Positions 7,880 through 19,736 of a stretch of DNA of 64,000 nt are shown piece by piece. A model generated the notes under the pieces. It had not been told where the DNA came from. It saw only the letters and a list, made by a program, of their open reading frames with translations, and searched no databases. The DNA is taken from assembly GCF_051903065.1 (NCBI RefSeq), contig NZ_CP178438.1; one strand, 5' to 3'. The position numbers and the translations under genes were made by a program. The stretch comes from Escherichia coli (GTDB lineage: Bacteria > Pseudomonadota > Gammaproteobacteria > Enterobacterales > Enterobacteriaceae). Every line of letters begins with the position of its first letter. Positions within the stretch are counted from its first letter, which is position 1.

Positions 7880-8494
<615 letters not shown>

Positions 8495-15337: not shown

Positions 15338-16339
15338 TCAGAGTTTAGCGAATTTTTCGAGGGTGCGAATAAGCTGCGTGACGAAGCCATATTCGTTATC
15401 GTACCAGGCGACCGTTTTCACCAGTTGTAAATCGCCCACGGCGGTAATTTCCGTTTGCGTGGCATCAAACACCGAACCGAAATGGCTGCCAATGATATCG
15501 GAAGAGACTATTTCTTCATCGGTATAACCAAATGACTCGTTATTGGTGGTTGCTTGTTTAAGTGCGTTATTCACCTCTTCGGTAGTCACTTTTTTTCCGA
15601 GAATGGACACCAGCTCAGTGACCGAACCTGTTTTCACCGGTACGCGTTGCGCATGACCTTTCAGTTTGCTGCTCAGTTCCGGTATCACCAGACCAATGGC
15701 TTTTGCCGCCCCCGTAGTGTGGGGAATGATATTTTCTGCCGCGGCGCGTGAAGCACGTAAATCTTTACCACGCGGGCCATCCACCAGTGACTGGGTGCCA
15801 GTATATGCATGAATGGTCGTCATCGTGCCGACTTCTATCCCGAAACTGTCATGCAAGGCTTTGGCCATCGGCGCAAGACAGTTAGTAGTGCATGATGCCA
15901 CGGAAACAATGGTGTCGTTGCTATCCAGAGTGTCGTCATTGACGTTATAAACGATAGTTTTCATTTCACCGGCAGGGGCGGAAATCAACACCTTCTTCGC
16001 GCCAGCATCAAGATGCGCCTGCGATTTCTCGGCGGAGGTATAAAAGCCAGTACATTCGACAATGATTTCTGCACCTTTCGCTTTCCACGGAATATTTTTA
16101 GCCTCTTTTTCGGCGTAAACCGCGATACTTTTCCCATTAACGATAAGTGAATCTTCCGTAAAATCAACGCTCCAGGGGAACGGTCCGTAGTTTGAATCAT
16201 GTTTCAGCAGGTAGGCGAGAATTTTTGGAGAAGTGAGATCATTAATAGCGACAACGTCTATGTTGCTTTTGACTTCAAGTAATCGACGCAACACCAGTCG
16301 ACCGATACGACCAAAACCGTTAATACCAACTTTACTCAT
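15338..16339 (-). CDS. gapC: Glyceraldehyde-3-phosphate dehydrogenase, apparently intact
   Basis: Uninterrupted 333-aa ORF; NAD-binding INGFGRIGR and active-site [10 protein letters not shown]. Confidence 0.85.
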
Positions 16340-17058: not shown

Positions 17059-17302
17059 AGGATATTTAAAGAAAACGCCTGTACTAAAACCGACCCGTGG
17101 TACAGGCGAAGAATACGGGTCTACATCGGAAGCGCCTATTATATTTATTTGTATGATAAATAAAACCATAATCCTTGCCCATACGTCCATCTGGCTTATT
17201 TTTAATCAATTCACCCGATCTTTGATCTCATCAACGGTATCAAAATAAACCAGCGTATAACGTTCAAATCGCACATAAGATTCGATAAACCATGGAGGTT
17301 AT

Positions 17303-17476
17303 ATGAAAAAACTGGCACTTATTTTGTTTATGGGAACGCTTGTTTCCTTTTATGCCGATGCCGGGCGCAAACCCTGTTCTGGTTCGAAAGGGGGGATCTC
17401 ACACTGTACGGCAGGCGGCAAATTTGTCTGTAATGATGGTTCTATTAGTGCATCGAAAAAAACATGCACTGACTGA
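17303..17476 (+). CDS. ydcA: Small secreted protein (57 aa)
   Basis: Short ORF MKKLALILFMGTLVSFYADA with signal peptide; RBS GGAGG upstream. Confidence 0.6.
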   Translation: MKKLALILFMGTLVSFYADAGRKPCSGSKGGISHCTAGGKFVCNDGSISASKKTCTD

Positions 17477-17547
17477 AGTGTAAAAGGGGTGCCATGAGAA
17501 AATGAATCTGCTAGTCAGATGCGCGGGGAAAATCCCCGCGCTTGCCC

Positions 17548-17697
<150 letters not shown>

Positions 17698-17760
17698 AGC
17701 CTTTCTCCTTGCCGGATGGCGGGTAAGAGGCTAACATCTGAATTGCTTGGTTCATTCGTT
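17698..17760 (+). ncRNA. sokB: Candidate sokB antisense RNA region (antitoxin of hokB)
   Basis: Inferred from hok/sok locus organisation (antisense to the mok/hok leader); boundaries not determined. Confidence 0.3.
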
Positions 17761-18029
17761 GGCCTCGGTTGATAGAAATATCGGTCGGGGCCTTCGTCTT
17801 TCTGATTCCCGGTTAGCCTGAAAACAGAAAGTCTCAGGCACCCGTGAGCATCCTATGTGGTTTCCTTAGGGACGAAAATAATCACCTGACGAAATTGCGT
17901 GCTGTTTTCCAGAATTTTTCGTCATTCGGGTTAGCCAGTTTAACCATTCGTTACTCTCTTCATTCCAATGGCATTAATCTTCTCTGCAATAATTGTTGTA
18001 AAAATGTGACGCAAAGAGGCTTTTAGTCG

Positions 18030-18056
18030 TAAGTAATTACCGTCAAATGCCGATGA
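18030..18056 (+). promoter_or_regulatory. Sigma-28 (FliA) promoter candidate for trg
   Basis: TAAGTAAT - 11 nt - GCCGATGA, about 40 bp upstream of trg ATG; matches TAAAGTTT-N11-GCCGATAA. Confidence 0.6.
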
Positions 18057-18095
18057 CTTTCTATCAGGAGTAAACCTGGACGAGAGACAACGGTA

Positions 18096-19736
18096 ATGAA
18101 TACAACTCCCTCACAGCGATTAGGTTTTTTGCATCACATCAGGTTGGTTCCGTTATTTGCCTGCATTCTAGGCGGTATCTTAGTTCTATTCGCATTAAGT
18201 TCAGCCCTGGCTGGCTATTTCCTCTGGCAGGCCGATCGCGATCAGCGTGATGTTACTGCGGAGATTGAAATTCGGACCGGGTTAGCGAACAGTTCAGATT
18301 TTTTGCGTTCAGCCCGGATCAATATGATTCAGGCCGGGGCTGCGAGTCGTATTGCGGAAATGGAAGCAATGAAGCGAAATATTGCGCAAGCCGAATCGGA
18401 GATTAAACAGTCGCAGCAAGGTTATCGTGCTTATCAGAATAGGCCGGTGAAAACACCTGCTGATGAAGCCCTCGACACTGAATTAAATCAACGCTTCCAG
18501 GCTTATATCACGGGTATGCAACCTATGATGAAATATGCCAAAAATGGCATGTTTGAAGCGATTATCAATCATGAAAGTGAGCAGATCCGACCGCTGGATA
18601 ATGCTTATACCGATATTTTGAACAAAGCCGTTAAGATACGTAGCACCAGAGCCAACCAACTGGCGGAACTGGCCCATCAGCGCACCAGCCTGGGTGGGAT
18701 GTTTATGATTGGCGCGTTTGTGCTTGCCCTGGTCATGACGCTGATAACATTTATGGTGCTACGTCGGATCGTCATTCGTCCACTGCAACATGCCGCACAA
18801 CGGATTGAAAAAATCGCCAGTGGCGATCTGACGATGAATGATGAACCGGCGGGTCGTAATGAAATCGGTCGCTTAAGTCGTCATTTACAGCAAATGCAGC
18901 ATTCACTGGGGATGACAGTAGGGACTGTTCGACAGGGCGCGGAAGAGATTTATCGTGGCACCAGCGAAATTTCCGCTGGCAATGCGGACCTTTCATCTCG
19001 CACCGAAGAACAAGCGGCGGCTATCGAACAAACTGCCGCCAGCATGGAGCAACTCACTGCGACGGTGAAACAGAATGCGGATAACGCGCATCATGCCAGC
19101 AAACTGGCGCAAGAGGCTTCTATTAAAGCCAGCGATGGCGGGCAAACGGTTTCCGGTGTAGTAAAAACGATGGGCGCTATCTCTATGAGTTCGAAGAAAA
19201 TTTCTGAGATCACCGCCGTCATCAACAGTATTGCTTTCCAGACGAATATTCTGGCACTGAATGCTGCCGTTGAAGCCGCGCGAGCGGGTGAGCAAGGGCG
19301 TGGATTTGCCGTTGTCGCCAGCGAAGTACGGACACTCGCAAGCCGCAGCGCTCAGGCGGCGAAAGAGATTGAAGGCTTGATCAGTGAATCAGTCAGGTTA
19401 ATTGACCTGGGGTCGGATGAGGTGGCAACGGCAGGGAAAACCATGAGCACTATTGTTGATGCCGTCGCGAGTGTCACACATATCATGCAGGAAATCGCCG
19501 CCGCCTCGGATGAACAAAGTAGAGGCATAACTCAGGTTAGCCAGGCGATTTCTGAAATGGATAAGGTGACGCAACAGAATGCTTCTCTGGTAGAAGAGGC
19601 CTCAGCAGCGGCGGTGTCCCTTGAAGAACAGGCTGCACGATTAACTGAGGCGGTGGACGTATTCCGTCTGAACAAACATTCTGTGTCGGCAGAACCTCGC
19701 GGAGCGGGTGAACAAGTTAGTTTCGCTACGGTGTGA
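18096..19736 (+). CDS. trg: Methyl-accepting chemotaxis protein III (ribose/galactose sensor)
   Basis: 546-aa ORF; two TM segments, HAMP, conserved MCP signalling domain ([36 protein letters not shown]). Confidence 0.9.

Follow-up and report, generated by a model that had tools for sequence, protein, structure and literature searches.

The closest described systems are the FliA (sigma-28) promoters of E. coli K-12, foremost among them trg p1 itself (b1421; Park 2001, Fitzgerald 2014, Hollands 2010). The class 3 promoters of tar, tsr, fliC, motA and flgM share with trg the sigma factor, the TAAAGTTT-N11-GCCGATAA logic and a place in the FlhDC to FliA cascade, but they have near-consensus -35 halves (7-9 bits), direct activation by CRP has not been seen at them, and their ChIP-seq signals, expressed as fold above threshold (FAT), are 48-110 compared with 23 for trg. 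The nearer relative is aer, which with trg is one of only two E. coli sigma-28 promoters found to be under direct activation by CRP (Hollands et al. Mol Microbiol 2010, PMC2859248). The spacing of the CRP site to the -35 and -10 elements is identical in aer and trg, and CRP at aer is centred at -49.5, a position from which it activates sigma-70 promoters very weakly (PMC2859248). Like trg, aer encodes a methyl-accepting chemotaxis protein (MCP)-type transducer and has a CRP 22-mer 28 nt before the -35 octamer, an 11-bp spacer and a sub-optimal core. The individual elements differ in strength: aer combines a good -35 element, TAAAGATA (8.9 bits), with a -10 element, GCCGACAT, that is poor (7.3 bits), and its CRP site matches at 17 of 22 positions; at trg the -35 is poor (4.1 bits), the -10 fair (11.2 bits) and the CRP site weaker (13/22).

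The K-12 promoter has been characterised from several sides. FliA gives a ChIP-seq peak at trg (FAT 23) on the motif TAAGTAATTACCGTCAAGTGCCGATGAC, and trg RNA falls from 108 in motile MG1655 to 4 in a fliA deletion, a significant, 27-fold loss (Fitzgerald, Bonocora, Wade, PLoS Genet 2014, PMC4183435). In microarrays, trg changed -2.0-fold upon fliA deletion and +2.2-fold after FliA induction (Zhao et al. NAR 2007, PMC1935009), and a trg100::lacZ fusion requires sigma-28 (PMC2859248). The p1 start has been placed at -33 (Park et al. 2001) and, by the authors' own directed mapping, at -32 from the ATG (Table 1C of Mendoza-Vargas et al. PLoS One 2009, PMC2760140). CRP binds the trg fragment in gel shifts and activates trg100::lacZ, an effect that is independent of FliA levels (PMC2859248). 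When genomic SELEX was run with FliA holoenzyme alone (Shimada et al. 2017, PMC5493296), both trg and aer were missing from the bound sites listed, which agrees with a need for an activator. The sigma-28 promoter of trg was thus already known from work published between 2001 and 2014, as were its start site, its dependence on FliA and its co-activation by CRP. The value of the present analysis is chiefly that of a control, in which gene, strand and promoter class were all correctly assigned from raw sequence, as the first-pass annotation of this DNA had hoped when it called the motif a useful internal check. Our additions are small: the composite CRP plus sigma-28 layout follows trg across enterobacterial genera in spite of new neighbours, and both core elements stay sub-optimal.

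The window, a stretch of 64,000 nucleotides of E. coli DNA, contains the flagged motif TAAGTAAT-N11-GCCGATGA exactly where it had been reported, at 18030-18056 on the plus strand. The features of the locus are as follows.

18002..18023, strand not assigned: CRP-cAMP binding site AAATGTGACGCAAAGAGGCTTT (13/22 to consensus, aer-like placing)
18030-18037, plus strand: FliA (sigma-28) -35 element TAAGTAAT (from the sequence)
18038-18048, plus strand: 11-nt spacer TACCGTCAAAT (from the sequence)
18049-18056, plus strand: FliA (sigma-28) -10 element GCCGATGA (from the sequence), with the CGA core at 18051-18053 intact
18063..18064, plus strand: trg p1 transcription start (K-12 mapping at -33/-32 from the ATG)
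18063..18095, plus strand: 33-nt 5' untranslated leader of trg, with a GAGAG ribosome-binding region (from the mapped start and the ATG)
18096..19736, plus strand: trg coding sequence, methyl-accepting chemotaxis protein III, the ribose/galactose transducer, 546 aa (open reading frame, RefSeq)

We conclude, with a probability of about 95%, that the flagged motif is trg p1, the single characterised trg promoter, and that it is a FliA promoter co-activated by CRP. The -10 octamer ends 39 nt before the trg ATG (18096), a distance that had been described as the expected one, and the K-12 starts placed on the window leave 6-7 nt between octamer and start. The two experiments that had been proposed as checks, 5' end mapping and FliA dependence of a trg reporter, had in fact both been published for K-12. 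The mapped ends at -33/-32 correspond to 18063/18064 (PMC2760140), trg100::lacZ needs sigma-28 (PMC2859248), and the RNA values are 108 versus 4 (PMC4183435). Together with the ChIP-seq peak, these data support the proposal of a sigma-28 promoter driving a late flagellar/chemotaxis gene.

The window and K-12 represent the same locus, with identical octamers, spacing, leader and CRP-site position, in different strain backgrounds (the window is 100% identical to strain A16). Over 116 bp the two are 96.6% identical, with four substitutions, all outside the octamers, given here as position and window/K-12 base.

18020: C/T
18025: A/G
18029: G/A
18047: A/G

One of these falls at a non-consensus position of the CRP site, and none in the octamers. 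The K-12 motif TAAGTAATTACCGTCAAGTGCCGATGAC differs from the window by the single spacer base at 18047 (A in the window, G in K-12), and from 18048 through the ATG the two sequences are unchanged. The functional data all come from K-12; judging by the sequence, the same FliA/CRP behaviour is to be expected in the present non-K-12 strain.

The identification of the gene as trg, also made in the first-pass annotation, is equally sound. In RefSeq, DNA that is 100% identical to the window carries the annotation hokB / trg / ydcI. Of 5,426 complete E. coli genomes, 5,416 have a match to the 721 bp surrounding the site. Several of these matches are at 100%, including that of strain A16, in which RefSeq annotates hokB, yncP and trg and with which the first 50 kb of the window are collinear throughout. 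The gene order gap-cybB-RydC-ydcA-yncP-hokB/sokB-trg-ydcI-hglS is that around K-12 b1421. The encoded protein is an MCP homologue of Tar, Tsr and Tap, and homologues of it bear the Pfam domains TarH, HAMP and MCPsignal; its scores fall short of the NCBIfam equivalog cut-offs set for Tar, Tsr, Tap and the citrate MCP, which is expected for a distinct MCP. Because an NCBIfam search of the protein matched no Trg-specific model above cut-off, gene identity rests on RefSeq annotation and synteny, and these establish orthology to E. coli K-12 b1421, i.e., the gene is trg.

The interval between cybB and trg holds three further features, all on the minus strand: the RydC small RNA at 17069-17132 (Rfam RF00505, 92.5 bits), the hokB toxin gene at 17548-17697 and a hok/sok RNA element at 17692-17843 (Rfam RF01794, 111.5 bits). 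A strong terminator-like hairpin lies at 17761-17792 on the plus strand, inside the stretch corresponding to K-12 sokB. Coverage of 17480-18200 reaches at least 80% in just 3,962 of the 5,416 matching E. coli genomes, and about one complete genome in four thus shows structural polymorphism in the hokB-trg intergenic region.

How good the motif is depends on which half is considered. It had been said to match the FliA consensus closely, which is true of the -10 octamer GCCGATGA, with 7 of 8 positions shared with GCCGATAA and a score of 11.2 bits (median of regulated FliA promoters, 12.3), but not of the -35 octamer TAAGTAAT, with 4 of 8 positions shared with TAAAGTTT and 4.1 bits (median 8.2). 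Both halves of the trg p1 core are therefore sub-optimal, lying below the median of regulated FliA promoters, and the weak -35 score is inside the range of the bona fide fliA, fliL, flgK and ycgR sites. To score the complete site we used a weight matrix made from the 51 other published FliA ChIP-seq sites (Fitzgerald et al. 2014), with trg left out. The trg site scores 15.4 bits and ranks first among 127,946 window positions; with a matrix restricted to strong sites, it ranks second. In random Markov sequences of 64 kb, 0.41 (or 0.135) sites at least as good occur per window, and the expectation by chance is approximately 0.001 when only the coding strand of the 300 nt preceding trg is considered. 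For all trg upstream regions examined, the site scores ~15-19 bits and the next-best match at most 9. Searches with looser consensus patterns were uninformative and were dropped as a test of significance: TAAA-N15-GCCGATAA with at most 2 mismatches has 12 matches in the window, against 6.2 expected, and GCCGATAA with at most 1 mismatch has 92. The motif by itself is moderate evidence that is statistically not compelling across 64 kb, and conviction comes from its position, its conservation and the published experiments rather than from motif quality alone.

Two other FliA-like sites in the window, both antisense to genes, deserve mention. At 7972-7999 on the plus strand, antisense inside azoR (7880-8485, minus strand), CAAATTTCACATCGGTAATGCCGATAAA scores as high as the trg site (14.6-17.0 bits with the FliA matrix), and the K-12 ChIP-seq table has no peak at the corresponding position (PMC4183435). 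At 40259-40286 on the minus strand, antisense inside ydcU (39458-40399, plus strand), the window carries an exact copy of a K-12 intragenic FliA ChIP-seq site, GCTGGGAATAAACCATATTGCCGATAAA, for which a FAT of 3 and unchanged expression in a fliA deletion have been reported (PMC4183435). This is apparently a weak, non-productive intragenic FliA site.

What the first-pass annotation missed, in implying a stand-alone class 3 promoter, is the CRP site at 18002-18023, through which CRP co-activates trg in K-12 (PMC2859248). In an alignment of trg upstream regions, another block that hardly varies, ...AAAATGTGAC..., stands ~20 nt before the -35 element; this conserved block (17992-18023, ATTGTTGTAAAAATGTGAC...) upstream of the FliA promoter is the published trg CRP site. 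We rejected a reading of its TGTGA block as an UP element or a sigma-70 -35 element in favour of that site. Its TGTGA half-site (18005-18009) is strong and its right half weak, with an overall match of 13/22 to the CRP consensus. The trg 22-mer AAATGTGACGCAAAGAGGCTTT and the aer 22-mer AATTGCGATCTAAATCAAATTA (17/22) are placed alike relative to the -35 octamer, each starting exactly 28 nt before it. Compared with the aer-equivalent position 18062, the mapped trg starts (18063/18064) are 1-2 nt further downstream, and CRP at trg is correspondingly centred at -50.5 or -51.5 by the mapped starts and at -49.5 by the aer-equivalent start.

These elements suggest a simple scheme. FliA-RNA polymerase would read the two octamers, TAAGTAAT at -35 and GCCGATGA at -10, 11 bp apart, and would initiate at 18063/18064 to produce a 33-nt leader followed by the trg ATG. 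CRP-cAMP bound at 18002-18023, with its centre ~49.5-51.5 bp upstream of the start, an unusual placing known from aer, would recruit or stabilise the holoenzyme. By analogy with aer, the only promoter of this kind to have been footprinted for such contacts, activating region 1 of CRP may touch the alpha C-terminal domains of the sigma-28 holoenzyme at trg as well. As a result, expression of trg would be restricted to the late stage of flagellar assembly and favoured in the absence of glucose, which would be sensible for a ribose/galactose receptor.

We then asked how this arrangement is distributed, using the sequence upstream of trg from K-12, from four divergent Escherichia lineages (82-87% identity in the Trg ligand-binding domain), from Citrobacter koseri, Leclercia and Salmonella enterica, from two further assemblies and from Cedecea neteri (a 56%-identical homologue). 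A contig scan with the Trg ligand-binding domain yielded the four Escherichia loci and one irrelevant spirochaete match, and the remoter orthologues came from a protein search. The -10 element, GCCGAT(G/A)A, is unchanged in 12 of 12 aligned upstream regions, and the -35 element is TAAG(T/C)AA(T/A) or TAATCAAA in the orthologues, with a conserved TAA core. The spacer is 11 nt long in ten upstream sequences, from Escherichia to Leclercia, while its letters drift freely. TGTGAC is almost invariant between genera, at an offset of -28 in Escherichia and -29 in other genera, and an AGAGAGxCxACGG block preceding the ATG is kept as well. At a finer scale, all substitutions within E. coli (K-12, AST262) lie outside the two octamers, and the 116-bp promoter region has megablast matches in 4,499 of 5,426 genomes. 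The upstream neighbour changes over the same set: it is hokB in Escherichia, Citrobacter, Salmonella and Leclercia have frmR/frmA-like genes there, and Cedecea has type VI secretion genes. That the promoter and CRP blocks are kept despite these changes indicates that they travel with trg and not with the hok/sok locus. Even the weakness of the promoter might be conserved, considering that the non-consensus -35, TAAG(T/C)AA(T/A), the non-consensus G of GCCGATGA and the fixed-offset CRP half-site are retained as a set in Escherichia, Salmonella, Citrobacter and Leclercia. There is, in our estimation, an even chance that this reflects selection for a sub-optimal, cAMP-CRP-gated trg, and that the unusual -49.5 architecture is an ancestral trait of Enterobacteriaceae and not a peculiarity of K-12.

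Two loci depart from this picture. Upstream of the Trg-like gene of Cedecea neteri (locus 1830-1930), a single sequence of uncertain orthology, the arrangement, judged by eye, is probably TAATGTTT-N12-GCCGATGA; one TGTGA precedes the -35 by just 9 nt, and ~90 nt upstream of the predicted start there is a second 22-mer resembling a CRP site (14/22). The site called there by the rigid weight matrix overlaps the true ATG and was rejected. The CRP/promoter arrangement of this 56%-identical homologue thus seems to be rearranged. In E. coli GPEC1176 (locus ~2440-2515, corresponding to window ~18009-18012), a Mu-like prophage with Mu transposase and HTH genes is found directly upstream of trg. Homology breaks inside the CRP 22-mer, so that the TGTGA half-site is cut off from an intact FliA promoter, and the insertion would represent a natural CRP-site knockout.

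Three other explanations of the motif have to be weighed against a CRP-co-activated trg p1. The least implausible, although we consider it improbable, is that trg has an ordinary class 3 FliA promoter working without an activator, the conserved block upstream being irrelevant or serving something else. Most E. coli sigma-28 promoters indeed need no activator, CRP was unbound at five of the eight regulatory regions tested (PMC2859248), and the trg CRP site is a modest one, with a poor right half and a 13/22 match overall. Nevertheless, the trg fragment is bound by CRP in vitro, and CRP activates trg100::lacZ apart from any effect on FliA level (PMC2859248); the published crp deletion experiment in effect already documents a loss of trg promoter activity at constant FliA. 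In addition, TGTGAC is nearly invariant across genera at an offset of -28 or -29, both promoter halves are sub-optimal, and genomic SELEX with FliA holoenzyme alone did not recover the trg region (PMC5493296).

That the motif is a non-functional chance resemblance, with trg read from another promoter such as a sigma-70 one, is barely credible and is already refuted for K-12, where the ChIP-seq peak sits on the motif and deletion of fliA costs trg 27-fold in RNA (PMC4183435). It draws on the 0.1-0.4 equally good sites per random 64 kb, on the 12 loose-consensus matches in the window and on the many E. coli FliA-like sites that are intragenic with no detectable output (PMC4183435). It is at odds with the mapped start 6-7 nt past the -10 octamer (PMC2760140), with a scan of 17200-18300 in which no sigma-70-like promoter was found, and with the conservation of two blocks around a drifting spacer across genera and upstream contexts. 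Just as remote is the idea that the conserved blocks are part of the hokB/sokB toxin-antitoxin locus, or of a divergent transcript on the minus strand, and do not belong to trg. The proximity of that locus makes it worth considering, since hokB/mokB/sokB is immediately upstream, with the Rfam sok match at 17692-17843 (minus strand), hokB at 17548-17697 and sokB annotated in K-12. Yet ~190 nt separate the motif from the end of the nearest hok/sok feature upstream, and Citrobacter, Salmonella and Leclercia, which have no hokB there, keep both promoter blocks and the CRP block beside trg.

Finally, two features elsewhere in the window are worth recording. At 15338-16339 on the minus strand is an intact type I glyceraldehyde-3-phosphate dehydrogenase gene (333 aa), annotated 'gap', whose counterpart in K-12, gapC, we take to be a pseudogene. 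An IS200/IS605 element occupies 28770-30492, between ydcL and ydcO, and has an insQ/TnpB gene for an RNA-guided endonuclease that is intact, next to a tnpA that an internal stop makes a pseudogene.
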